DNA from: an uncultured Clostridia bacterium
GTDB taxonomy: Bacteria > Bacillota > Clostridia > TANB77 > CAG-508
Direction: 5' to 3'
Length of the DNA stretch: 64,000 bases
NCBI GenBank assembly: GCA_944389745.1
Contig: CALXNM010000005.1
Span: forward strand, 8,078-72,077
Below are positions 10,322-59,977 of the stretch, in pieces. Both the position numbers and the translations under genes were made by a program. A model generated the notes under the pieces. That model was not told the origin of the DNA. It was given only the letters and a program-made list of their open reading frames with translations, and made no database searches. Position 1 is the stretch's first letter, and each line of letters starts with the position of its first letter.

Positions 10322-11983
10322 ATGGAAGATGTAGATATTGCAAGAAATACAAAATTAGAAAAAATACAAAATATTGCAGAAAGTATAGGTATCACAGAAG
10401 ATGATTTAGAATTATATGGAAAATATAAAGCTAAAATAAATTTGAAAATAATGGACAAATTGAAAGATAAAAAAGATGGAAAACTAGTATTGGTAACCGC
10501 AATAAATCCTACGCCTTTAGGAGAAGGAAAAACAACCATGGCAATAGGCTTAGCTGATGGGCTTAAAAAAATTGGAGAAAAGCCAGTTCTAGCATTAAGA
10601 GAGCCATCGCTAGGACCAGTATTTGGAATTAAAGGAGGAGCAACAGGTGGAGGACATTCACAAATAGCTCCAATGGAAGATATTAACTTACATTTTACTG
10701 GCGATATTCATGCAATAACATCTGCAAATAACCTTCTTTCAGCAATGATAGATAACCATATATATTTTGGAAATGAGCTTGGATTTGATAGGGTAACTTG
10801 GAAAAGATGTGTGGATTTAAATGATAGACAATTAAGAAAAGTAGAAACAGGATTATCTGGAGAGAAGAAAATAGTACCAAGAGAAGATGGGTTTGATATA
10901 TCTGTTGCATCTGAAATAATGGCAATATTTTGTTTAGCAACTGATATAAAAGATTTAAAAAGAAGAATTGGTAATATAATTGTTGGATATACTAAAGAAA
11001 ATAAGCCAATAACAGCAAGAGACCTAAAAGCTGATGGAGCATTAACAGTACTTTTAAAAGATGCCATAAACCCTAACTTAGTTCAAACATTGGAAAAGAC
11101 ACCTGCAATTGTTCATGGTGGTCCATTTGCCAATATTGCTCATGGATGTAATAGTATTATTGCAACAAAACTTGCTTTGAAATTAGGTGACTATGTAATA
11201 ACAGAAGCTGGATTTGGTGCGGATTTGGGTGCGGAAAAATTCTTAGATATTAAATGTAGAAAAGCTGAAATTAAACCAAATGCAGTTGTATGTGTTGCTA
11301 CAATTAAAGCATTAAAATATCATGGTGGAATGCCAAAAGAGGAAATTCAAAATGAAAGTATAGAAGCATTGAACAGAGGATTTAATAATCTTTTAAGACA
11401 TGTGGATAATTTGAAAAATAAATACGGATTAAATGTAATTGTTGCAATTAATAAATACACACAAGATACTGAAAATGAAATTGAATTTTTACGTAATAAA
11501 TTAAAAGAGCAAGGTATAGACTTAAGTTTAGTAGAAAGCTGGGAAAAAGGCGGAGAAGGAGCAACAGACCTTGCAGAAAAAATTGTAGAATTAACTAAAA
11601 AAGATTCTAAATTAAATTACATGTATGATTTAAATGAAAGTTTAAAAGAAAAAATAAATGACGTAGCAACAAAAGTTTATGGAGCAGAAGGAGTAGAGTT
11701 TTCAGCAGAAGCGGAAGAACAAATACACAAAATAGAAGAATTAGGGTATGGAAATTTGCCTGTATGTATAGCAAAAACACAATATTCTTTTTCTGATGAT
11801 CAAAAAAACTTAGAATGCTTAGAACCATTCAAAATACATGTAAATGAAATTATATTAAAATCAGGTGCTGAGTTCGTTGTGGCTATAACAGGAAAAATAA
11901 TGACAATGCCGGGCTTGCCAAGAGTTCCAGCAGCAGAAAACATAGACTTAGATGAAAATGGAAATATAATTGGAATATTTTAA
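10322..11983 (+). CDS. fhs: formate--tetrahydrofolate ligase
   Basis: TAINPTPLGEGKTT P-loop and full-length FTHFS-like sequence. ATG 10322 has an upstream GAGGGAAAGG. The track ORF starts at TTG 10298. Confidence 0.95.
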   Translation: MEDVDIARNTKLEKIQNIAESIGITEDDLELYGKYKAKINLKIMDKLKDKKDGKLVLVTAINPTPLGEGKTTMAIGLADGLKKIGEKPVLALREPSLGPVFGIKGGATGGGHSQIAPMEDINLHFTGDIHAITSANNLLSAMIDNHIYFGNELGFDRVTWKRCVDLNDRQLRKVETGLSGEKKIVPREDGFDISVASEIMAIFCLATDIKDLKRRIGNIIVGYTKENKPITARDLKADGALTVLLKDAINPNLVQTLEKTPAIVHGGPFANIAHGCNSIIATKLALKLGDYVITEAGFGADLGAEKFLDIKCRKAEIKPNAVVCVATIKALKYHGGMPKEEIQNESIEALNRGFNNLLRHVDNLKNKYGLNVIVAINKYTQDTENEIEFLRNKLKEQGIDLSLVESWEKGGEGATDLAEKIVELTKKDSKLNYMYDLNESLKEKINDVATKVYGAEGVEFSAEAEEQIHKIEELGYGNLPVCIAKTQYSFSDDQKNLECLEPFKIHVNEIILKSGAEFVVAITGKIMTMPGLPRVPAAENIDLDENGNIIGIF

Positions 11984-25122: not shown

Positions 25123-25665
25123 ATGTCTGATATAAAGGGTAAATATATGCAAATATTAGAAGATTTAGAATCTAATATTAAAAATAAAGAGGATCTAGCT
25201 ATAGCAAAAGAAAAATTTATGGAACTAACCGTAGTTTTTATGGATATAGTAGATAGATTGACATTTTTAACAGATGAAAGAATTAAAAACATAGAAGAAA
25301 AACAAGTAGAAATAAACAATAGGATTAGTAATGTACAATCAATTGTAGATGGAATAGAAGAAGATATATATGATGAGGAAGACGATGAAGATGGATATGA
25401 ATTTGAAATTGTTTGTCCTTATTGTAATTATGAATTTACCACTGATATAGCAGATGAAGAAAAAAATGAAATAAAATGTCCTCAATGTAATAATATTATA
25501 GAATTAGACTGGAATTCTGATGAAGAATATGCTTGTTCAGGAAATTGTTCACATTGTCATGGAGAAGGAGTAGCCGAAGATAGTATAGAATATAATAAGA
25601 ATTCTAAAAATAAGAAGAAAAAAGATGATAACCAAGAAGAAAATAATGAGGATGACGATATGTAA
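25123..25665 (+). CDS. acidic zinc-ribbon protein, function unknown
   Basis: CPYCNYEF...CPQCNN plus CSGNCSHCHG cysteine clusters. Glu/Asp-rich tail. Confidence 0.7.
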   Translation: MSDIKGKYMQILEDLESNIKNKEDLAIAKEKFMELTVVFMDIVDRLTFLTDERIKNIEEKQVEINNRISNVQSIVDGIEEDIYDEEDDEDGYEFEIVCPYCNYEFTTDIADEEKNEIKCPQCNNIIELDWNSDEEYACSGNCSHCHGEGVAEDSIEYNKNSKNKKKKDDNQEENNEDDDM

Positions 25666-28456: not shown

Positions 28457-28532
28457 TTGGCAGGGGTACTAAGACTCGAACTCAGACTTGTGGTTTTGGA
28501 GACCATCGTGCTAACCATTAACACTATACCCC
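28457..28532 (-). tRNA. trnW: tRNA-Trp (anticodon CCA)
   Basis: The reverse complement AGGGGTATAGTGTTAATGGTTAGCACGATGGTCTCCAAAACCACAAGTCTGAGTTCGAGTCTTAGTACCCCTGCCA folds as a cloverleaf. Anticodon loop is CTCCAAA, T-loop is TTCGAGT, and the CCA end is encoded. Confidence 0.92.
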
Positions 28533-28627
28533 TATGAAATTACTTTATTATCTTAGCACAAAAAATAAATTAATGCAAGAGGAAAAAAGAAAAAATTATG
28601 AATAACTTAATTAATAAAATAAATGAT

Positions 28628-28681: not shown

Positions 28682-29146
28682 TTACTTCTTCCAGAAGTAG
28701 AGCTCCAGCTCCTCATCGGTCTTAACGACCACAGCAAGGAACCTCTCGTCCTCGAAAACGAACGTGTTCTCCATGCCGTCGACAACCTTCCAGCTGTCGT
28801 TGTCGCTGTCACGGCTGATTCCCGGAATCTTGCACGGGTTGATCATGTCGTAGCAGGACAGCTTGAGACCCTTGTCAGGGTACTCACAGATGGGGTCGAG
28901 CACCTTAATTGCCGTAGCAATCTCAATGCCCATGGTTCCGGTTGCACCGCAGATGGCGTCAACGACGTAGGGATAACCGTTGTAGGTGCAGTCACCCTTG
29001 TCATACACCATAAAAGCGGTGCGAGGTCCGAGAATGGTCAGCGCCCGTTCGGCATTGACATTTTCGGCCTCATCGATGATCGAATTGTCCTTAAACTGAA
29101 AGAAGCTGTTGTTTGGGCAATAGCCCAGATTCTCGTACTTTGCCAT
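28682..29146 (-). CDS. foreign-composition cassette A: 154-aa Cys-rich, His-free cytoplasmic protein, family not recognised
   Basis: ATG 29146 (MAKYENLGYCPNN...) is preceded by AAGGAGG with a 9-nt spacer. Hand-counted GC is 48%, 55% and 55% over three 60-nt blocks, against ~23% in the next native gene. The track ORF extends to 29254 but lacks an SD. Confidence 0.75.
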   Translation of the reverse strand: MAKYENLGYCPNNSFFQFKDNSIIDEAENVNAERALTILGPRTAFMVYDKGDCTYNGYPYVVDAICGATGTMGIEIATAIKVLDPICEYPDKGLKLSCYDMINPCKIPGISRDSDNDSWKVVDGMENTFVFEDERFLAVVVKTDEELELYFWKK

Positions 29147-32049: not shown

Positions 32050-32340
32050 TTAGTAGTCATACCGATGATCAATTAAAGATTTTATGAAATAAGCTTCAAG
32101 TATGCTCCATGCGATAATTGAAACTATTATAGGCCAAGAATTGTTGCCAAGCATTGCATTCACGATTATTATCAGAATATCGAGTATAATCATGATTGCA
32201 GCTACTACAATCAAAACCCTTGATATTAGGTTTGGCCGGTCTGCTGGTGTTATCAACAAGAACAAACTTGAGGCTACTAGCACAAGAGATTTAATCAACA
32301 TCAGTGTGAAATGCATGTCGGCATACGATACTACTACCAT
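32050..32340 (-). CDS. foreign-composition cassette B: 96-aa protein with three predicted TM helices
   Basis: ATG 32340 (MVVVSYADMHFTLMLIK...) is preceded by AGGAGG. Three hydrophobic helices. Hand-counted GC is 37-43%. The track ORF starts at GTG 32415 with no SD. Confidence 0.65.
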   Translation of the reverse strand: MVVVSYADMHFTLMLIKSLVLVASSLFLLITPADRPNLISRVLIVVAAIMIILDILIIIVNAMLGNNSWPIIVSIIAWSILEAYFIKSLIDHRYDY

Positions 32341-32630
32341 GGTTCCTCCTAAAAGTTGTGGACGACACGAACACTTTGCAAAAGCTAAACCTACAGAGGA
32401 ATTCACTCCCTTCACTAATTACTAGTAAAATGGATTGACAACATAGGTTGGAAACCTATATATTCTTATATTATACCACATTTACATAAATAAGATAAAT
32501 GAAAATTAAATTCATAATTTATATAAAATAATATAGAAAAAAGAAATAATTAATAGTATAATGAACGTGATTGAAATAATAAAGCACTGGGTAAAAGCGA
32601 AAGAAAAAAATAACAAAAGGAGAGGTTTTT

Positions 32631-34186: not shown

Positions 34187-34546
34187 TGGTGGAGATGATG
34201 GGATTTGAACCCATGTCCAATAATCCGTCCATAAGAACTTCTCCGAGTGCAGTTTGTTAATAAAATTCCCTAAAAACTAATTAACAAACAAATTATATTT
34301 TTAGGTAGTCAAATAAATACCCTTTATTCCTATGACGAGGAAATAAATTCGTTTCCCACGTTTATGACGTTTTATCTAAAGCTGTGGGGCGCTAAAGTAA
34401 AACGAGCTGCTAATCTTAAGCAGCGTAAGCTAATTCTCTATTATCAGCGTTTATATTTAAATTTCGCTTTTTTATAGTGGCCGAAGCGACCATCCACTAC
34501 TCGCTATTCATACTTCAGGGTTACTGTCGAAACCAAATACATCCCC
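34187..34546 (-). ncRNA. ssrA: tmRNA (SsrA)
   Basis: The reverse complement starts GGGGATGTATTTGGTTTCGAC and ends GGGTTCAAATCCCATCATCTCCACCA. Internal tag reading frame is GCT GAT AAT AGA GAA TTA GCT TAC GCT GCT TAA (ADNRELAYAA*). Confidence 0.93.
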
Positions 34547-34738: not shown

Positions 34739-35206
34739 ATGGAAAAATTGGAACGGACAAATGTAGTTCTGGAAACAATCCATGAGGACGATGATGCTGA
34801 GGAGTATTATCAAATCGCACAAGACTCTGGAATACAGGAGTATGTAGGCTTCATGTATCCCACTGATCTGATGCATGCACAGGAAATCCTGGACTTCCTG
34901 TCTGATCCCAGACTCATCTGCTTCAAAATCATTGAAGTGGATACCGGCGACATGGTCGGAATCATTCTGGGTGACCCGTTAACTAGCACCATTATTGACA
35001 TATCATATTTTGTGGGTGCAGATTACCGTGGTCAGGGATACTGTTCATCAGCTGTCCAACAGCTGGAGGAGTATCTGAGAGAAGATACCTGTTTCACAAT
35101 TATGAGGTTCTTTGTCAAGGAAGACAACGAGGAGTCTCAGAATGTGATGAGCAGGCTCGGTATCGAGCGGAGGTTCGGGAACGTTTATATGCTGGACATT
35201 GATTAG
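34739..35206 (+). CDS. foreign-composition cassette C: GNAT family N-acetyltransferase (RimJ/RimL-like)
   Basis: IDISYFVGADYRGQGYCSSAVQQLEEYL (motif A, R/Q-x-x-G-x-G/A) and VKEDNEESQNVMSRLGI. GGAGG SD lies 9 nt before the ATG. Hand-counted GC is 42-50%. Confidence 0.8.
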   Translation: MEKLERTNVVLETIHEDDDAEEYYQIAQDSGIQEYVGFMYPTDLMHAQEILDFLSDPRLICFKIIEVDTGDMVGIILGDPLTSTIIDISYFVGADYRGQGYCSSAVQQLEEYLREDTCFTIMRFFVKEDNEESQNVMSRLGIERRFGNVYMLDID

Positions 35207-39745: not shown

Positions 39746-41944
39746 ATGTCAGAATATAAAAACAAAGAAATTGAAGATGTAATAGCAGTGGTGAAAAAGA
39801 AAAAGGGTAGACGTGATACAAAGCTAATACAACGTGCATATGACTATGCAAATTCAAAACATGGAGATCAGAAAAGAAAGTCTGGAGAACCATATATAAT
39901 ACATCCTGTACAAGTAGCGTATATTCTTGCAGATTTAGGCATGGATGACAACACTATTTGTGCAGCACTTTTACATGATGTTTTAGAAGACACTGATACT
40001 ACATACAATGATTTAGTAAAAGAATTTAACCAAGAAATTGCATATATGGTTGATGGAGTTACAAAACTTAGTAAACTTCAGTATGCAAGTGTGGAAGAGC
40101 AACAAGTTGAAAACTATAGAAAAATGTTTTTAGCAATGGGAAAAGACATACGTGTAATCCTAATAAAACTTGCAGATAGACTTCATAATATGAGAACTTT
40201 AAAGTTTTTATCTAGAGATAGACAGATAGCAAATGCTAAAGAAACAATGGAACTATATGCACCACTTGCAAATAGACTTGGTGTATATTCTCTAAAATGG
40301 GAACTAGAAGATTTAGCTTTTAAATATTTGTATCCAGAAGAATATAGAGAATTAGTAGAAGGTGTGAATAGGAAAAGAGAAGAAAGACTTAAATTTATTG
40401 AGCAAATAATGGATCAAATAAGAGAAGAATTAAAGAAACAAAGAATAGATGCCGAAGTAACTGGAAGAGCAAAGCATCTATACAGTATATACAGAAAGAT
40501 GAAAAGAGATAATTCAACTCTAGACCAAATATATGATTTATTTGCATTAAGAATAATAGTAAACTCAGTAAAAGACTGTTATGCAGCACTTGGAGTAGTA
40601 CATGACTTATATAATCCAATGCCAGGAAGATTTAAAGACTATATAGCAGTACCAAAACCAAATATGTATCAATCACTACATACAACATTGATTGGACCAA
40701 AAGGAACACCTTTTGAAGTTCAAATACGTACATGGGATATGCACAGAGTTGCAGAATATGGTATTGCTGCACACTGGGCATACAAAGAGTCTAGTTTCGC
40801 AAAAGGCAAGAAGGCAAATGTAAAAGTACAAGATGATAAACTAGCATGGGTAAGAGAAACACTAGAATGGCAAAGCGAAATGCAAGACCCAGACGAATTC
40901 ATGTCTACATTAAAGAAAGAATTATTTGTAGATGAGGTATATATTTTTACTCCAAAAGGAGCAATAAAAGTACTTCCAAAAGGTTCAACACCAATAGACT
41001 TTGCTTATCAAATACATGAGCAAATAGGACATAAAATGGTTGGCTGTAAAATAAATAGCAAAATGATGCCAATAACAACTAAGTTAAATAATGGTGACAT
41101 TGTAGAAATAATAACATCAGACCAATCAAAAGGACCAAGTAGAGACTGGCTTAAATTTGTAAAAAGTTCAAGAGCAAGAAATAAAATATTAGGATGGTTT
41201 AAGAAAAACCAAAGAGAAGAAAATATAGAAAAAGGTAAAGACATAATAGAAAAAGAACTTAAAAAAATAGGTGTAAAACATGACGAACTATTTAAAAATG
41301 AATTTGTACAGCCAGCATTAAATAGATATAAATATAACAGCTTAGAAGACATGTATGCAAGTGTTGGATTTGGTTCAATATCTGCAGGAAAAATTATATC
41401 TAGAATGTTAGAAGAATACAGAAAAGTACATAAAGAAGACGATATAGAAAAAACCTTACAAGAGCTATCAAAAGAAAAAGTACATAAAGAAAAACCATCA
41501 TCAAATGGTATCATTGTAAAGGGAATAGATAATTGCTTAGTAAAACTATCAAAATGTTGTAACCCAGTACCTGGAGACGATATAATAGGATATGTTACAA
41601 GAGGTAGAGGAGTATCTGTACATAGAACAGACTGTGTAAATGCAAAAAATCTATTAACAGATGGGAATAGAATAATAGATGTATATTGGAGCAATCAAAA
41701 AACAACATATAGTGTTGATATAGAAATATATGCAAATGATAGAACAGGACTATTAGCAGACATAATAAATGTAATAGGAAATACCAAATGCAAACTACAA
41801 GCAGTTACTTCAAAAGCAAACAAAGAAAAAATTGCAGTAACAGAAGTAACAGTTGAAGTAGAAAATATAGAACAATTAAACAAAGTATTAAAAGCTCTTA
41901 GAAAAGTAGATAGTGTATACGAAGTAAAAAGAAAGAAACAATAG
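39746..41944 (+). CDS. relA: bifunctional (p)ppGpp synthetase/hydrolase Rel (long RSH)
   Basis: HD domain (HPVQVAYIL...LHDVLEDT). Synthetase motifs GRAKHLYSIYRKM, DLFALRIIV, KPNMYQSLHTT, EVQIRTWDMHRVAEYG. TGS and ACT regions present. Confidence 0.97.
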   Translation: MSEYKNKEIEDVIAVVKKKKGRRDTKLIQRAYDYANSKHGDQKRKSGEPYIIHPVQVAYILADLGMDDNTICAALLHDVLEDTDTTYNDLVKEFNQEIAYMVDGVTKLSKLQYASVEEQQVENYRKMFLAMGKDIRVILIKLADRLHNMRTLKFLSRDRQIANAKETMELYAPLANRLGVYSLKWELEDLAFKYLYPEEYRELVEGVNRKREERLKFIEQIMDQIREELKKQRIDAEVTGRAKHLYSIYRKMKRDNSTLDQIYDLFALRIIVNSVKDCYAALGVVHDLYNPMPGRFKDYIAVPKPNMYQSLHTTLIGPKGTPFEVQIRTWDMHRVAEYGIAAHWAYKESSFAKGKKANVKVQDDKLAWVRETLEWQSEMQDPDEFMSTLKKELFVDEVYIFTPKGAIKVLPKGSTPIDFAYQIHEQIGHKMVGCKINSKMMPITTKLNNGDIVEIITSDQSKGPSRDWLKFVKSSRARNKILGWFKKNQREENIEKGKDIIEKELKKIGVKHDELFKNEFVQPALNRYKYNSLEDMYASVGFGSISAGKIISRMLEEYRKVHKEDDIEKTLQELSKEKVHKEKPSSNGIIVKGIDNCLVKLSKCCNPVPGDDIIGYVTRGRGVSVHRTDCVNAKNLLTDGNRIIDVYWSNQKTTYSVDIEIYANDRTGLLADIINVIGNTKCKLQAVTSKANKEKIAVTEVTVEVENIEQLNKVLKALRKVDSVYEVKRKKQ

Positions 41945-54277: not shown

Positions 54278-54311
54278 AGGTGATATCTTATAAAAAGAAA
54301 GGATGGTTTTT

Positions 54312-56222
54312 ATGAAAATTACTTTAAAAGATGGCTCTGTAAAAGAAGTAAAACAAGGAATCAGTGTTTTAGAGTTAGCAAAAGAAATAAGCGAAGGATT
54401 AGCAAGAATGGCAACTTGTGCAAAAGTTAATGGAAAAGTAAGAGATTTAAGATATGAAATTAATGAAGATTCAGAGGTTGAAATTTGTACTTTTGAAAAT
54501 AGTGAAGATGGTAAAAAAGCATATTGGCATACAACAGCTCACATTATGGCACAAGCTATAAAAAGAATATATGGTGATGATGTAAAATTAACAATAGGAC
54601 CTGCTATAGATAAAGGTTTCTATTATGATTTTGATGTTAAAGAAAATATATCTTCAGATGATTTTGAAAAAATAGAAGCTGAAATGAAAAAAATAATAAA
54701 AGAAGACTTACCAATAGAAAGATATACACTTCCAAGAGATGAAGCTATAAAATTTATGAAAGAAAAGAATGAAGACTATAAAGTAGAATTAATAGAAGAA
54801 CTTACAGAAGGAGAAGAAATATCATTCTATAAACAAGGTGAATTTACAGACCTATGTGCTGGTCCGCATTTAATGAGTACAGGAAAAGTAAAAGCAATAA
54901 AAATACTTTCTTCTTCAGGTGCTTATTGGAGAGGCGATGAGCACAATAAAATGCTACAAAGATTTTATGGAATATCATATCCTAAAGCTAGCCAGCTAGA
55001 AGAATATTTGAACATGTTAGAAGAAGCTAAAAAACGTGATCATAAAAAACTAGGAAAAGAATTAGAACTATTTATGATAGCACCAGAAGGACCTGGATTT
55101 CCATTTTTCTTACCAAAAGGAATGGTATTAAGAAATGTTCTAGAAGATTTCTGGAGAGATATTCATAGAAAAAACGGATATGTAGAAATAAAAACTCCTA
55201 TGATATTAAACGAAGAATTATGGCATCGTTCAGGACATTGGGACCACTATAAAGAAAATATGTATACAACAAAAATAGATGGTGTAGATTATGGAATAAA
55301 ACCAATGAACTGCCCAGGAGGAATGCTTGTTTACAAGAGTAAAATGCATTCATACAAAGATTTACCAATAAGAGCAGGAGAACTTGGATTAGTTCATAGA
55401 CATGAAAAATCAGGAGAACTAAATGGTTTATTTAGAGTAAGATGCTTCACACAAGATGATGCGCATATCTTCTGTTTACCAAGTCAAATTGAATCTGAAA
55501 TAGCAGGAATAATGAAACTTGTAGATGAAGTATATAGCATATTTGGATTTGAATATACAGTAGAACTTTCTACAAGACCAGATGATTCAATGGGATCTGA
55601 TGAACAATGGGAAATGGCTGAAGGAGCATTAAAGAAAGTACTTAAAGATATGGAAATGCCATATGAAATAAATGAAGGAGACGGAGCTTTTTACGGACCA
55701 AAGATTGACTTCCATATTAAAGATTCATTAGGACGTGAATGGCAATGTGGTACAATACAATTAGACTTCCAAATGCCAGAAAGATTTGATTTAACATATA
55801 TAGGAGAAGATGGAGAAAAACATAGACCAGTTATGCTTCACAGAGTTATATTTGGAAGTATAGAAAGATTTATTGGTGTATTAATAGAAAACTATGCAGG
55901 AGCATTCCCAACATGGCTAGCACCAGTACAAGTAGAAATACTACCAATTGCAGATGCGCACAATGAGTATGCAAATGAAGTAAAAGCAAAACTAGAAGAT
56001 GTTGGTATAAGAGTAGAAGTAGATAGTAGAAATGAAAAAATAGGATATAAAATAAGAGAAGCACAACTACAAAAAATACCATATATGTTAGTCTTAGGAG
56101 ATAAAGAAAAAGAAGCAGGAACAGTTGGTGTACGTTCTAGAAAAGATGGAGATATTGGAGCAATGGATTTAGATGAATTCATAGCAAAAATAGTAGAAGA
56201 AATAGATACATTTGCAAAATAA
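54312..56222 (+). CDS. thrS: threonine--tRNA ligase
   Basis: TGS N-terminus (KITLKDGS), editing domain (HTTAHIMAQA), class II core (FRVRCFTQDDAHIF) and anticodon-binding domain. ATG 54312 is preferred over 54303. Confidence 0.96.
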   Translation: MKITLKDGSVKEVKQGISVLELAKEISEGLARMATCAKVNGKVRDLRYEINEDSEVEICTFENSEDGKKAYWHTTAHIMAQAIKRIYGDDVKLTIGPAIDKGFYYDFDVKENISSDDFEKIEAEMKKIIKEDLPIERYTLPRDEAIKFMKEKNEDYKVELIEELTEGEEISFYKQGEFTDLCAGPHLMSTGKVKAIKILSSSGAYWRGDEHNKMLQRFYGISYPKASQLEEYLNMLEEAKKRDHKKLGKELELFMIAPEGPGFPFFLPKGMVLRNVLEDFWRDIHRKNGYVEIKTPMILNEELWHRSGHWDHYKENMYTTKIDGVDYGIKPMNCPGGMLVYKSKMHSYKDLPIRAGELGLVHRHEKSGELNGLFRVRCFTQDDAHIFCLPSQIESEIAGIMKLVDEVYSIFGFEYTVELSTRPDDSMGSDEQWEMAEGALKKVLKDMEMPYEINEGDGAFYGPKIDFHIKDSLGREWQCGTIQLDFQMPERFDLTYIGEDGEKHRPVMLHRVIFGSIERFIGVLIENYAGAFPTWLAPVQVEILPIADAHNEYANEVKAKLEDVGIRVEVDSRNEKIGYKIREAQLQKIPYMLVLGDKEKEAGTVGVRSRKDGDIGAMDLDEFIAKIVEEIDTFAK

Positions 56223-56258
56223 AATAAAAAAACAGAAATTAACATAAAACACAAAAGG

Positions 56259-56292
56259 CAGGCGTGTAAATAAATCAAACACGTCTGTTTTT
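56259..56292 (+). terminator. thrS rho-independent terminator
   Basis: CAGGCGTGT ... ACACGTCTG stem followed by TTTTT. Confidence 0.75.
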
Positions 56293-56300
56293 GCTTAAAT

Positions 56301-56329
56301 TTGAGAAAAAGCTCAAAATGTGCTATAAT
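56301..56329 (+). promoter_or_regulatory. near-consensus sigmaA promoter of cassette D
   Basis: TTGAGA (56301..56306), 17-nt spacer, TGcTATAAT (hexamer 56324..56329). Confidence 0.6.
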
Positions 56330-56374
56330 TAAAGAGTAAACCGTTTTACTAAACAACCGAAAGGAGTATGCTAC

Positions 56375-57286
56375 ATGAAAGTAACGGACACCCTGGAATT
56401 TCCTGACATGCAGGAAATTCTGGAAAAAGCGCACAACATCGATGATGTTTGGGATGCGCTTATCGCATGGTTCAGTGAGGACCCCAACGATCTGGAGAAG
56501 GTCGCATGTGCTAACAAGCTCATCGAGTTTAACAACATGCGGAATTCGGACCTGGTCATTAAGCTTGATCAAGATGTTAGTGAAATCAAAGATGTCCTTC
56601 GTGGGATATCGAGACGATACGGACACACGATCACCGTAACCAGGCGCCAGAAAGCGTTGATTGGCGTTATTGCCAAGATGGTAATACTCATCCAGCGTGG
56701 AGAGAAGCAAGGCATGAACGTGTTTTCTTCTCTTGAAGGTCTGAAAGATTTTATTGGCATCAGGATTGTTGCCCAGACCGGAAAGAAAGACACGCCGGAG
56801 AGTCAGCAGATGGCTTACGACATCATGAACGAGGTACTGAGGTTCCTCGTTGTCGAGAAGAAGAATACTCTTTCGACTGTCCTCCAAGACAGAACTGTCA
56901 GAGAACTGAAAGGCGTCTTAATTCCAGAGCAATCTGGAGTATGGGATGTCTTCAAGGACAACGTGAAGGATTACTTCTACTATGCCAAGCCAAATGGCTA
57001 TCAGTGCCTGCACGCTGTTCCTATGGGACCTGACCAGCAAACTGTAGAGATTCAGGTGAGGACTCAAGAAGCCGAAGTTCGAGCAGAGTATGCGGAAGCA
57101 ACTAGCCATGAGGCTCACAGGCTGCTTCGATATGAAGGCTTCGAGGTTCCGGTTGACCTGTCTAAGGTTGACATCGAAGGAGTAACCGTGGTTGACTTTG
57201 GGGGAGAGACCTCGCTTACGGGAGTTACCATCTACGACAGGGTTGGACTTGTCCACGCTGTTGACCCGCTGAACCTTCTGCGATAA
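56375..57286 (+). CDS. foreign-composition cassette D: stand-alone RelA/SpoT-homologue nucleotidyltransferase (SAS/toxSAS-like), 303 aa
   Basis: Synthetase motifs align by eye with the native Rel in this window: TRRQKALIGVIAKM, DFIGIRIV (56747..56764), KDYFYYAKPNGYQCLH, VEIQVRTQEAEVRAEY (E225 at 57047). No HD, TGS or ACT region. AAGGAG SD lies 8 nt before the ATG. Hand-counted GC is 47-52%. Confidence 0.85.
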   Translation: MKVTDTLEFPDMQEILEKAHNIDDVWDALIAWFSEDPNDLEKVACANKLIEFNNMRNSDLVIKLDQDVSEIKDVLRGISRRYGHTITVTRRQKALIGVIAKMVILIQRGEKQGMNVFSSLEGLKDFIGIRIVAQTGKKDTPESQQMAYDIMNEVLRFLVVEKKNTLSTVLQDRTVRELKGVLIPEQSGVWDVFKDNVKDYFYYAKPNGYQCLHAVPMGPDQQTVEIQVRTQEAEVRAEYAEATSHEAHRLLRYEGFEVPVDLSKVDIEGVTVVDFGGETSLTGVTIYDRVGLVHAVDPLNLLR

Positions 57287-57292
57287 CGGTTA

Positions 57293-57332
57293 GCGACCGC
57301 CCGGGGGTACTTCCCTGGGCAGTTGCTTTTTT
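57293..57332 (+). terminator. GC-rich rho-independent terminator of cassette D
   Basis: GCGACCGCCCGGGGG-TACT-TCCCTGGGCAGTTGC (with G-U pairs) followed by TTTTTT. Confidence 0.75.
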
Positions 57333-57451
57333 ATTTCTTATTACCATCATCTGAAATAAATTTCATAAAACTCTTTTTTAATATAGAATAATGTAAAAAC
57401 TTATGATATAATACAGTACGAAAAAATAAGAATTATTGAAGGAGGTAAATT

Positions 57452-59977
57452 ATGGCTAGAACTGCTAAAACTACGAACAAAACAGAGGCTACAGAAGAAA
57501 TAGAAACTACAAAGACCTCAAAGACTACAAAGACCAAAAAGGCTGAGAGTACCGCAAAAACTACAAAAAGAACCACTAAAACAGCCAATAAAGCAGCGGC
57601 GAAAACAACAACTAAAACAGAACCAGAAAATGAAGTAGATAACAAATTAAAATATATCGGACTAAATTTAAATAGAATTCCAGCATTTTTAAAAGAGCAT
57701 GAAAGCCTAAATTTCAGACCTTCTAAATCATATGATGATACAATTTATAAAGTATATAGATATGTTAATATAAAAAATATAGAAATTTTGATAACTCCAC
57801 GTGATAGATTAACAGATTTAAAAGAAAAATATAAATTAGCAAGTCCAATTCGTGACTATTTAGATAAGAAAAACATAGAAAATGCTGAAAAGCATGAAGA
57901 TTTTATGAAGCTTGTTGAAACTATTAATGAAAAGAGAATAGAAGAAATAGCTAAAGAACAAGAAGAATTAAATGAAAAAATACCATATGAGGTTAAATAT
58001 CCTAATAACTATATATGGCAAATATATTATTCTGATTATGCAAAAAAATATTTTATGCTTGCAACAACTAAAGAGCAAGATAATAATGCTATGTTTTATT
58101 TGTTAAAAGAACAAATAGCAAATACAAGATCAAGAAAAGGAAAATATATTTTTGTTCCAATAAGTCATTTAGAATATTCAGGGTTATTTTTAACAAAATC
58201 AGAAATTTCAGATGTAGAAAATTATTTATGGTATTTTACAAAAGAATGGCCAAATGTATATGAAATATTTGACAAAGATAATAATTTATTTATAAAAATC
58301 GTGGGAGTTACAAATATATATGACAAAATAAAGACAACATATAGTATATATTTAGATTCAAAAGAAGAAGCACTAAATTTTTACAAATTATTAAAAGCAA
58401 TGTTCATATTAGCTACAGGTGCAAAAGAAGAATTTAAATTTGTAACTAAAATAAATGCAGATGGACAGATAGAATTTTGGCATAAAGATCATTTAGTAAA
58501 ATATGAAAATCTTTCAGAATACATAAAATTAGAGTACCTAGATAAAATTGATAGACTAAAAAAAGAAGTTAAAGACGGAGCAGAGTTAGAAAGAAAGTTA
58601 AGTAAATTTAAAGTTGTTATAGAAGAATTAACCCAAGATTATTTACAAAGACAAAGACAAATAGCAACATTTCTTGAATGTAAAAAAACATTCTTTGGAA
58701 AAGTAAAATATTTCTTTAAAAAGAAAAAAGATAATAAAGATATTAGAACTCTGAAAGAGCAAAGACCACTAAGCAGAAGAGAAGAAAGTAAAACTAAAAA
58801 TGATGAATCAAAAGACGAAACATTAAAAGAGTTATATGCATTAAAACAACAATACACAATAGAAGATTTAATAAATATATGCACAAAATTAGAAGAAGTA
58901 GTTAAGAAAAATACAAATTTAAAATTAGATATTAAAGCTATAGAAACAAAAAAAGATATATTAACTAAAAAGATTGATAATGCCGATTTATATATAAAAG
59001 AAATAGATAAACACAAAAAGAGTATTTTTGAATTTTGGAAATTTACAAGTAAAGATGAAGTACAAACCCTAAATGAAGCCGAAGAACAAGAAAAAACAGA
59101 ACATACTAAAATGAGAAAATACTTTGATTATAAAGATGATTTAGAAGATTTAGGAAAAATTGTAGACGAAGTTCAAAGAAGGAAATTATCAAAAAATGAA
59201 ACAGATGCAATATTTGTACTAAAACAAGTACCAGAGTCATTTAAAGAACTAAACAGTGAAAAAGAAACTGATGTTGAAGTATTTGTGGAAAAAGAAGAAG
59301 AAGCAAAACCAAAGAAAAGGACAAGAAAAAAAGAAAATCAATTAGCAACAGACTTAGAAAATCTAAAAAAAGAATATGAAAATGATATAGAAGTAATAAA
59401 CAGCAAAGACTTTGACATATTTGGAGGATTAATAGAAGATAAAACAAAAGTAAAAAGCATTAATAATGAAAAACATAGAGAAATAGAAAAAGACAAATTC
59501 AAAATATTAAATATAAACCTAGACACAGATATAAAAGCATATACAGAAAATTTGGAAAGTTATTTAGCATTAATAAAAGAAGCATTAAATAAAATAAAAT
59601 CACCATATGATATGTCTGTATATTGCATAAATAATAAAAAAACAATTGAGGGAATAAATATATTTAATATGAATCCAAAAGAAGCTTTAAAAGAAGAGCT
59701 ATCTGGAAAAAAATCAAAAATAACACTATGCAAAATAAATATAAAAGAAAATACACCAGCAGTATTTTACAGTAACATTATTTTTTATGACAATTTCAAC
59801 AAAACATTACCAGTTGGAATGAATTTATCATCAGAAATAGTATTAGACGTAAATAAATTAAAATTAGACTTTGTAAAAGAAGATACATTTTATATTAATT
59901 ACAAAGTAAATGAATTTGAATTTGCAACAAAAGAAGTACAAATATATGAATACAATTCAGAATGCAAAAGCAAATAA
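57452..59977 (+). CDS. 841-aa protein of unknown function with a Lys/Thr-rich N-terminus and coiled-coil regions
   Basis: GGAGG SD. N-terminal ~60 aa of KT(T/A)K-type low complexity. Long Lys/Glu-rich helical stretches. No NTPase or nuclease motif recognised. Native AT-rich composition. Confidence 0.75.
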   Translation: MARTAKTTNKTEATEEIETTKTSKTTKTKKAESTAKTTKRTTKTANKAAAKTTTKTEPENEVDNKLKYIGLNLNRIPAFLKEHESLNFRPSKSYDDTIYKVYRYVNIKNIEILITPRDRLTDLKEKYKLASPIRDYLDKKNIENAEKHEDFMKLVETINEKRIEEIAKEQEELNEKIPYEVKYPNNYIWQIYYSDYAKKYFMLATTKEQDNNAMFYLLKEQIANTRSRKGKYIFVPISHLEYSGLFLTKSEISDVENYLWYFTKEWPNVYEIFDKDNNLFIKIVGVTNIYDKIKTTYSIYLDSKEEALNFYKLLKAMFILATGAKEEFKFVTKINADGQIEFWHKDHLVKYENLSEYIKLEYLDKIDRLKKEVKDGAELERKLSKFKVVIEELTQDYLQRQRQIATFLECKKTFFGKVKYFFKKKKDNKDIRTLKEQRPLSRREESKTKNDESKDETLKELYALKQQYTIEDLINICTKLEEVVKKNTNLKLDIKAIETKKDILTKKIDNADLYIKEIDKHKKSIFEFWKFTSKDEVQTLNEAEEQEKTEHTKMRKYFDYKDDLEDLGKIVDEVQRRKLSKNETDAIFVLKQVPESFKELNSEKETDVEVFVEKEEEAKPKKRTRKKENQLATDLENLKKEYENDIEVINSKDFDIFGGLIEDKTKVKSINNEKHREIEKDKFKILNINLDTDIKAYTENLESYLALIKEALNKIKSPYDMSVYCINNKKTIEGINIFNMNPKEALKEELSGKKSKITLCKINIKENTPAVFYSNIIFYDNFNKTLPVGMNLSSEIVLDVNKLKLDFVKEDTFYINYKVNEFEFATKEVQIYEYNSECKSK

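Follow-up and report, generated by a model that had tools for sequence, protein, structure and literature searches.

Organization of the locus

The window analyzed here, i.e. the whole stretch of 64,000 nucleotides (nt) taken from contig CALXNM010000005.1 of an uncultured Clostridia bacterium, carries between the genes thrS (54303-56222) and p841 (57452-59977, + strand) an ATG-started open reading frame (ORF; 56375..57286, + strand) with a product of 303 amino acids (aa). The gene is referred to below as SAS (small alarmone synthetase) or, where orthologs are compared, as RSH (RelA/SpoT homolog). It encodes a single-domain synthetase and forms the body of a hyper-structured mRNA, a description based on Pfam, on invariant catalytic residues, on the ratio of nonsynonymous to synonymous substitution rates (dN/dS) and on folding z-scores.

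The gene has its own promoter, ribosome-binding site and terminator, as proposed in the original prediction, which was made from the sequence of the window. The sigma-70-type promoter (56301..56329, + strand) is composed of TTGAGA, a 17-nt spacer and TATAAT (11/12 matches) and has an extended -10 element (TG at 56321-56322); the sequence TGnTATAAT is found unchanged upstream of RSH in 10 orthologous regions. With a transcription start presumed ~7 nt past the -10 element, the 5' untranslated region (UTR) covers positions 56336..56374 (+ strand), and in predicted folds it pairs with the region following the stop codon. Two of its sequences, AACCGTT (56339-56345) and AACCG (56355-56359), are complementary to the 3' UTR, and the Shine-Dalgarno (SD) sequence AAGGAG was recognized at 56361-56366. 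The complementary AACGGTT (57285..57291, + strand) overlaps the stop codon and would be the 3' arm of an end-closing helix. The unit ends with an intrinsic terminator (57299..57332, + strand), comprising a 9-bp GC-rich stem (57299-57320) and a T6 run (57327-57332).

Synthetase domain and catalytic residues

In the Pfam analysis, RelA_SpoT (PF04607) was identified at residues 91-240 of the 303-aa protein with 49.4 bits (cut-off 27). It was the sole Pfam domain, with no match to HD, TGS or ACT, exactly as had been read from the sequence. NCBIfam models of long Rel/RelA proteins matched only in their catalytic core, with scores far under their cut-offs. PF04607 is also present in 22/22 close homologs.

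The synthetase-domain region (56645..57094, + strand), defined by Pfam and by residue invariance, includes R91, K93, K101, D125, R130, K198, Y209, H213, E225 and Q227. All of these, together with D199, Y200, K205, Q210, R229 and H245, are invariant or nearly invariant in ~150 representatives of the family, and the same holds for Y253, G269, D288 and G291 in the C-terminal part. For R91, K93, K101, D125, R130, Y209, E225, Q227 and H245, conservation is complete or amounts to at least 89%. In the 22 close relatives, too, R91, K93, K101, D125, R130, K198, Y209, H213, E225, Q227 and H245 vary little or not at all. D125 and E225, the two acidic residues that the original prediction had pointed to, are invariant in the 22 close and ~150 distant family members. 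In RelP of Staphylococcus aureus, R78 and R112 stack the adenine, K80 and K88 bind phosphates, D107 and E174 bind Mg2+, and Y151 of the G-loop stacks the acceptor base (PMC5794853). SAS has matching ATP-, Mg2+- and acceptor-stacking residues (R, K, K, D, R, Y, E, H), with H190 of RelP matched as well; this correspondence is one of motif alignment and not of superposition. Judged by these features, the ORF does encode a stand-alone alarmone synthetase of the RelA/SpoT type in which the catalytic residues are all present, most likely an active pyrophosphokinase which uses GDP or GTP as acceptor and produces (p)ppGpp.

The AlphaFold2 model of SAS has a mean predicted local distance difference test (pLDDT) score of 89 and a predicted template modeling score of 0.87. 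In it, a helical N-terminal part (residues 12-82) precedes the alpha/beta synthetase core, which is followed by a small C-terminal part rich in beta structure. With a pI of 5.08 the protein is acidic, and the net charge of its N-terminal part is -8. The sequences flanking the domain had originally been described as unrecognized extensions of an atypical protein; the architecture is indeed atypical, but the extensions are confidently folded and the C-terminal residues are conserved family-wide.

The best matches of the model in the PDB, found with Foldseek, were Rel catalytic fragments, RelA, RelP and RelQ, and the family profile detected Rel/RelA with E = 1e-13, RelP with 8e-9 and RelQ with 9e-5. 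By sequence and fold, the closest relatives of SAS among characterized proteins are, on these comparisons, long Rel, RelP and RelQ. Like RelP and RelQ (SAS2 and SAS1 of Firmicutes), SAS has a single RelA_SpoT domain, is monocistronic, lacks an antitoxin and is accompanied by a long bifunctional Rel in the same genome. However, its similarity to them is limited to ~50 residues (positions ~196-254; E 8e-9 to 2e-4) and does not extend over the full length. While RelP and RelQ comprise ~210-230 aa and are ~50% mutually similar, SAS has ~300 aa, including an 85-aa acidic helical N-terminal part, a ~35-residue insertion before KDY and a conserved beta-rich C-terminal domain. It also differs from them in its fast evolution and in its hyper-structured mRNA.

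With the synthetase domain of long RSH proteins, of which Rel of Bacillus subtilis, S. aureus and Thermus thermophilus and RelA of Escherichia coli gave the best profile and fold matches, SAS shares the motif block KDY-x4-K-x3-YQ-x2-H ... E-x-Q-x-RT. In contrast to these proteins, it has no HD hydrolase, TGS, AH/RIS or ACT domains, and it should therefore possess neither a ribosome-sensing apparatus nor hydrolase activity. The window itself contains such a long protein (39746..41944, + strand), in which HD_4, RelA_SpoT, TGS, AH/RIS and ACT were all identified. BLASTP of SAS against it gave 42% identity over 52 aa in the KDY...AEY block (E = 8e-9), and a weaker segment pairs TRRQKALIGVIAKM with GRAKHLYSIYRKM and DFIGIRIV with DLFALRIIV, which reproduces the motif pairs that had been aligned by hand. 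This long Rel is likely to act as the hydrolase for the alarmone product of SAS. Its gene has an ordinary AT-rich composition, with a GC content at third codon positions (GC3) of 0.16.

Composition and inheritance of the SAS gene

The GC content of SAS (0.47-0.52) is well above that of its flanks (0.21-0.34), and the step at the gene borders is abrupt. At the first, second and third codon positions it amounts to 0.59, 0.31 and 0.55, compared to ~0.45, 0.30 and 0.13 in the neighbors, whose GC3 ranges from 0.13 to 0.16; the contrast is thus sharper than the hand count of the original prediction had indicated. The codons preferred by the host, i.e. TTA, ACA, TCA, ATA and AGA, are almost absent from SAS, the codon usage of which is roughly the inverse of that of the host. 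Host-rare codons account for 11-42% of the codons in SAS orthologs and for 3-5% in neighboring genes (42% versus 5% in the window). The GC3 of orthologs (0.28-0.57) exceeds that of their neighbors (0.10-0.28; 0.10-0.22 except for p841 of L015) in 11/11 genomes; genomes of relatives are denoted here by L numbers.

Such an abrupt GC step around a self-contained promoter-to-terminator unit with near-inverted codon usage would fit a recently acquired foreign cassette whose GC content still reflects that of the donor, and this was how the gene had originally been read. The distribution of its homologs makes this origin very improbable. A word-indexed search of 5.8 billion proteins returned only 22 relatives of SAS, all of ~290-320 aa, and all close homologs found belong to uncultured Clostridia of the same group. 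In phage and plasmid collections there were no close relatives, only generic RSH-motif matches, and in a viral structure library only remote RSH folds. With E<=1e-10 as threshold, an exhaustive profile search recovered 519 representatives, among which full-length members (270-330 aa) number more than 100 at 50% identity clustering. One family member, OKZ60075.1, is recorded as a "hypothetical protein" of Clostridium sp. CAG:354. When one genome per GTDB species was scanned, full-length members were found only in metagenome-assembled genomes named uncultured Clostridia or Clostridium, and the carriers include a complete chromosome of 1.70 Mb (OZ006978.1; RSH of 91% identity).

The gene order thrS-RSH-p841-recN is kept in at least 12 species-level relatives (L004, L007-L015, L018 and L094), where the proteins are 32-92% (RSH), 70-88% (recN) and 64-83% (p841) identical to those of the window. 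With L001-L003, L005 and L006 included, the loci sharing this synteny are L001-L015, L018 and L094. The order is also constant around a 68%-identical relative (P0004) residing on contigs of up to 445 kb: peptidase C1, (DUF4190), thrS, RSH, a gene for a protein of ~790 aa without Pfam match, a gene for a 135-aa protein, and a recN-like gene. The GC content of this RSH is 0.42-0.46, compared to 0.18-0.33 in its surroundings. Neighbor-joining trees of RSH, recN and p841 are roughly congruent, sharing the main groups {window, L007, L004, L008} and {L013, L014, L018}. Between the window and the closest genome, L007, the nonsynonymous divergence (dN) of RSH is 0.051 and its synonymous divergence (dS) 0.84 (dN/dS 0.06), while the synonymous divergence of the neighbors is 0.66-0.77. 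Despite this dS, GC3 has remained steady at 0.55-0.57 in both genomes. The foreign reading fails because RSH is a conserved core gene at this locus and is GC-elevated in the relatives too, an outcome that the original prediction had itself named as contrary to its proposal. Instead, its synteny, roughly congruent tree, low dN/dS and GC3 excess in spite of synonymous turnover show that the gene is old, functional and vertically inherited under purifying selection in this clade of small-genome uncultured Clostridia of ~28% GC.

RSH evolves about 3x faster than the neighbor genes, and one relative has lost a large part of it. In L018 (7609-8108), a deletion has removed its promoter together with the first ~146 codons, and a C-terminal remnant lies directly past the thrS terminator, while its sister L014 (recN 97% identical) keeps a complete RSH.

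The downstream gene p841, the composition of which is typical of the host, encodes an 841-aa protein (773-822 aa in relatives) that matches no Pfam family and is rich in Lys and Thr at its N-terminus. Within the clade this protein keeps 64-83% identity and its gene always follows RSH, which is not so in distant family members. For thrS, comparison with L013-L018 revealed two sharply distinct types, with 85-95% and 64-69% identity to the window, in contrast to the continuous distances of recN and p841 and the unbroken synteny. This suggests that thrS was replaced in one sub-lineage.

Folding of the SAS transcript

Two other possible sources of the GC excess were rejected. Amino acid composition does not account for it, since the value at the second codon position (0.31) is neighbor-like and the excess lies mostly at the third position, with a lesser rise at the first. 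An overlapping antisense gene was discarded because the stop-free antisense stretches (68-199 aa) are not conserved and folding of the sense strand exceeds that of the antisense strand.

The inferred transcript (56336-57335) was folded, giving a minimum free energy (MFE) of -374 kcal/mol, compared to -303 +/- 8 kcal/mol for dinucleotide-preserving shuffles (z -8.75). With the same type of shuffle, the RSH coding sequences gave z-scores of -7.1 (window), -6.3 (L007), -8.6 (L004), -7.8 (L008), -8.0 (L013) and -6.7 (L014), while pieces of equal length from thrS, p841 and recN gave -0.7, -1.2 and +0.1, respectively. In a second procedure, codons were permuted among sites of the same amino acid, so that both the protein and the codon usage remained fixed. 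The z-scores then ranged from -3.1 to -10.5 in 9 orthologs (thrS -0.7, recN +0.1), and permutation cost 30-80 kcal/mol of stability. Segments of two control genes of E. coli, relA and rlmD, had z-scores of -1.0 to -1.9 and, at a GC content of 0.53, were less stable than SAS of the window at 0.49.

The structure is conserved among orthologs. RNAalifold applied to a codon alignment of 9 orthologs (57-92% aa identity) yielded -74.9, compared to -28.6 +/- 4.2 for a null model obtained by shuffling codon columns of like conservation class among themselves (z -11). When the 9 transcripts were aligned with MAFFT, the program predicted 144 pairs, and compensatory changes were present in 34 of these. 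Among the 138 pairs counted, 89.6% of the cells were paired, versus 33-51% when the partners were slid by 1-3 columns. Double-sided changes were present in 36 pairs (66 cells), compared to 22.7 +/- 2.9 pairs (31.4 +/- 4.5 cells) in shuffles, with 0/500 shuffles reaching the observed values, and to 10-21 pairs (11-27 cells) in the slid versions. The consensus includes long-range helices, e.g. between alignment columns 156-163 and 961-968 and between 406-417 and 774-785, and compensatory changes among orthologs were also seen in the terminator helix (consensus helix 19). The gain in stability over shuffles was greater for the sense than for the antisense strand in 7/7 orthologs. In 8/9 orthologs, third positions that are paired have a greater GC3 than those left unpaired (e.g. 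0.55 versus 0.30 in L004), the values being near-equal in L007 (0.57 versus 0.56).

Consensus helix 1 is a 13-bp hairpin formed by codons 7-17 (56393..56423, + strand), present in both the MFE and the centroid structures, with the arms CTGGAATTTCCTG and CAGGAAATTCTGG and the loop ACATG. It is 95% paired in the 9 orthologs, where its changes are one-sided (e.g. U-G to U-A and G-U to A-U). The conserved peptide LEFPDMQEILE is coded by an almost perfect palindrome. Peptide and helix seem to be under mutual constraint, and this may add to the unusual evolutionary rate of the protein.

The folding data bear on a further explanation, namely that the GC-rich codons are selected per se, as a translation throttle or for isoacceptors that stay charged during starvation, with the structure as a by-product. 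The high share of host-rare codons and the near absence of host favorites noted above would be expected in this case, and starvation-robust codons, an idea reportedly put forward by Elf et al. in 2003, would suit a stress enzyme. We nevertheless regard this explanation as improbable. The conserved helices carry compensatory changes, high GC3 is found mainly at paired positions, the UTRs join the structure, and the loss of stability upon synonymous permutation at fixed usage indicates that the arrangement of the codons, not their frequencies alone, has been selected.

GC-rich segments in AT-rich genomes are a classic signature of structured non-coding RNAs (ncRNAs) (PMC6429828, PMC11109978), and SAS resembles the ncRNAs found in GC-rich intergenic regions in that a local GC peak coincides with a strong signal of conserved secondary structure. 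A locus encoding mainly a large structured ncRNA, with the ORF incidental or decaying, is still hardly credible. Unlike those ncRNAs, the segment is protein-coding and under strong purifying selection: the ORF is intact in nearly all orthologs with a dN/dS of 0.06, the Pfam domain is significant, and the catalytic residues are invariant in the ~150 diverged representatives. In addition, Rfam models identified only tmRNA and tRNA-Trp in the window, with no more than chance-level matches within 56200-57400.

The composition anomaly is tied to the conserved structure of the sense-strand RNA, and SAS looks foreign because its whole mRNA appears to have been selected to fold compactly.

Pairing of the transcript ends and accessibility of the initiation region

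In most orthologs the 5' UTR can pair with the sequence directly past the stop codon, in helices of 7-15 bp whose sequences are lineage-specific: AACCGTT with AACGGTT in the window and L004, CCACAAC with GTTGTGG in L099, GTAAACCGTTA with TAATGGTTTGC in L008, AAATTTTGCTAAACG with CGTTTAGCAAAGTTT in L014, and AAAACTAAATA with TATTTAGTTTT in L094. An ungapped-helix score was used here, with shuffled and non-cognate controls, RNAduplex on whole UTRs having given uninformative loop-rich duplexes. The mean best-helix score was 7.3 for cognate UTR pairs and 5.6 +/- 1.7 for non-cognate ones, and the 9-15-bp helices of L008, L010, L014 and L094 were significant (p<=0.005). The translation initiation region was predicted to be more open than the coding sequence (probability of being unpaired 0.43-0.72 versus 0.31-0.40), and hok-like sequestration of the SD sequence and AUG was rejected for this reason.

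The mRNAs of the type I toxins hok and aapA1 adopt a compact fold with a long-distance interaction between the 5' and 3' ends (PMC6733600, PMC9841398). The SAS message is similarly predicted to be compact with paired ends. It differs in encoding a 303-aa enzyme instead of a small membrane peptide, in a structure that spans the whole 0.9-kb coding sequence and in an SD sequence and AUG predicted to be fairly accessible instead of locked.

Is SAS a toxic synthetase?

The original prediction considered SAS as a candidate toxSAS (toxic SAS) or CapRel-like protein. The product of such an enzyme would be (pp)pApp or pyrophosphorylated tRNA. In place of an adjacent antitoxin, its toxicity would be restrained by its own mRNA fold, similar to a type I toxin, by its C-terminal domain in cis or by a distant neutralizer. 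Several features are compatible with this possibility. Like the toxSAS proteins (FaRel, FaRel2, PhRel, PhRel2 and CapRel) and Tas1, SAS is a stand-alone synthetase fold with the conserved Asp and the G-loop Tyr, its catalytic residues are intact, and it diverges rapidly and unevenly and carries family-specific extensions, of which the C-terminal domain is conserved. The compact, end-paired message recalls hok and aapA1, and host-rare codons are heavily used. Moreover, SASs are probably distributed on a continuum of toxicity (Jimmy et al.; PMC7229694).

A partner gene was sought in this connection. As stated in the original prediction, SAS has no adjacent partner: there is no credible small ORF in either intergenic gap, and across the clade no antitoxin-like neighbor is conserved at the locus. 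The neighbors are thrS and the gene for a 780-840-aa protein, both of which have, in the window, host-typical composition and promoters of their own. At the sequence level, neither an antisense RNA nor a conserved antisense promoter was found at SAS, the only promoter candidates being two weak, unconserved minus-strand matches. Unlike toxSAS and Tas1, SAS has no adjacent or recognizable fused antitoxin, and in contrast to the toxin-antitoxin, prophage or defense context of toxSAS genes it occupies a core chromosomal position conserved clade-wide, in a housekeeping context and not in a defense island or prophage. PADLOC gave only PDC-S33 (20.6 bits over 37 residues) and PHROGs gave no match.

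The structural comparisons were also unfavorable to toxicity. Apart from the nearest matches to Rel, RelP and RelQ, the Foldseek search placed Tas1 only at rank 39, and none of the 50 matches listed had a description naming CapRel or FaRel2; the family profile detected in the PDB, at E<=10, no chain described as toxSAS (CapRel, FaRel2, Tas1). Binding of tRNA by FaRel2 requires a basic N-terminal patch, a region which is negatively charged in RelP and RelQ (bioRxiv 10.1101/2021.04.30.441581); the N-terminus of SAS, unlike that of FaRel2, is acidic. The relatively open initiation region speaks against a restrained toxin message as well. None of these analyses (partner genes, PDB profile, Foldseek, PADLOC, phages and plasmids) provided positive evidence for a toxSAS or CapRel-like protein, and we consider this identity rather unlikely.

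The gene contexts of the family vary, comprising the thrS/p841 type, a Tad4-like type and a CoaD-like type in which a CTP_transf_like gene precedes RSH. In the CAG-354-like genomes L087-L092, RSH is a divergent neighbor of genes for 217-221-aa proteins, e.g. L090 5181-5834 (- strand) and L091 17-682 (- strand), the C-terminus of which matches the Type I Thoeris inhibitor Tad4 (PF25186, 43.8 bits). In L087 only a 91-aa fragment of this neighbor is left. At the CAG-354-like loci, RSH (z -5 to -6.6) and the Tad4-domain genes (z -4.6 to -5.4), but not the flanking genes, are over-structured, and the Tad4-domain genes share the GC3 elevation of RSH. This divergent pairing of distant members with a GC-rich, structured gene can be counted in favor of a toxSAS-like function. 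A Tad4-like partner was also considered for the window, where none was detectable by tblastn.

Proposed function of SAS and its message

The reading that we favor, and consider probable, is that SAS is a lineage-specific, vertically inherited synthetase with (p)ppGpp as its probable product, and that its message is subject to control or stabilization by its own structure. The enzyme would bind ATP-Mg2+ and move the beta,gamma-pyrophosphate onto a purine nucleotide at the 3'-OH, GDP or GTP being the most probable acceptor. The resulting (p)ppGpp could be degraded by the long bifunctional Rel, whose gene lies 14 kb upstream. The strong extended -10 promoter would drive a monocistronic mRNA of ~1 kb, folding into dense conserved local and long-range helices, with the 5' UTR closing on the post-stop sequence and the ribosome-binding region left comparatively open. 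The GC-rich codon usage would then be the footprint of selection on the transcript. Such an architecture might give a long-lived or RNase-resistant message, throttled translation, or both, and might represent RNA-level control of a potentially growth-arresting enzyme, possibly in place of a protein antitoxin.

Several points weigh against this interpretation. The assignment of the acceptor derives only from active-site similarity, and N207 and G208 of the G-loop differ among close orthologs. RSH is dispensable, its promoter and N-terminal half being deleted in L018. Its divergence, which is fast in comparison with recN (32-92% versus 70-88% identity), is unusual for a housekeeping SAS and resembles that of arms-race or toxin genes. 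The evidence at the RNA level is wholly computational, MFE details are unreliable for an RNA of 1 kb, the consensus structure used in the 138-pair count was derived from the same alignment, and several individual 5'/3' UTR helices are not significant alone. Finally, synonymous divergence is not reduced (the proportion of synonymous differences is 0.51 for RSH and 0.44-0.48 for its neighbors), which implies that the structure would be kept by turnover and compensation of pairs and not by frozen sites.

The gene adds to the known SASs a subfamily of ~300 aa that has N- and C-terminal domains of its own, was matched to no described subfamily in the searches made here, and is confined to abundant, uncultured gut Clostridia. 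It is also a clear counter-example to the rule that atypical GC content and codon usage indicate horizontal transfer, since the anomaly here is old, has been passed on vertically and seems to persist through selection on how the RNA folds.

Other GC-rich cassettes in the window

An elevated GC3 was also seen in three other single-gene cassettes of the window, all of which possess an extended -10 promoter as well as a terminator. The first (28682..29146, - strand; GC 0.52, GC3 ~0.45-0.5) encodes a 154-aa protein without Pfam match and adjoins tRNA-Trp (28458-28533). Its synonymous-shuffle z-score is -4.4 to -6.2, and its homologs are found only in the same clade, including a syntenic ortholog in L096 with a GC3 of 0.77 in a genome with a GC3 of ~0.12. 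The second (32050..32415, - strand) shows a milder elevation (GC 0.38) and encodes a 121-aa, apparently hydrophobic and possibly membrane protein, also without Pfam match; it has the promoter TGGTATAAT, a terminator and a folding z-score of ~-3. The third (34739..35206, + strand; GC 0.45, GC3 0.53) encodes a GNAT acetyltransferase (PF13302, 59.5 bits). It adjoins tmRNA (34187-34546) and is monocistronic, with a z-score of -3.5 to -5.7. Only 6 homolog clusters were found, restricted to the same clade, and the ortholog in L097 is syntenic and has a GC3 of 0.55.

These cassettes, together with the Tad4-domain genes, raise a broader possibility, which we put forward tentatively and hold to be somewhat doubtful as a whole: SAS may belong to an undescribed class of monocistronic, clade-specific, fast-evolving genes of this lineage, the entire mRNAs of which are selected as compact, end-closed, GC-enriched RNAs. 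The members seen would be SAS, the GNAT acetyltransferase, the Tad4-domain proteins and the small proteins of unknown function, with SAS as a growth-arresting enzyme restrained by RNA. If this is true, post-transcriptional control in bacteria would include an unusual layer specific to one class of genes, an alarmone synthetase of potential toxicity could be restrained without a protein antitoxin, and messages of potentially toxic or conflict-related proteins could be long-lived, resistant to RNases or host shut-off, or conditionally translated.

The coding sequences of the three cassettes are over-structured (z -2.8 to -6.2), compared to a mean z-score of -0.47 (standard deviation 1.29) for 47 AT-rich ORFs of the window. 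Two of the AT-rich ORFs, 10322-11983 and 25123-25665 (both + strand), also reached z ~-3 in a screen with 450-nt pieces and 12 shuffles, which may represent noise or local structure.

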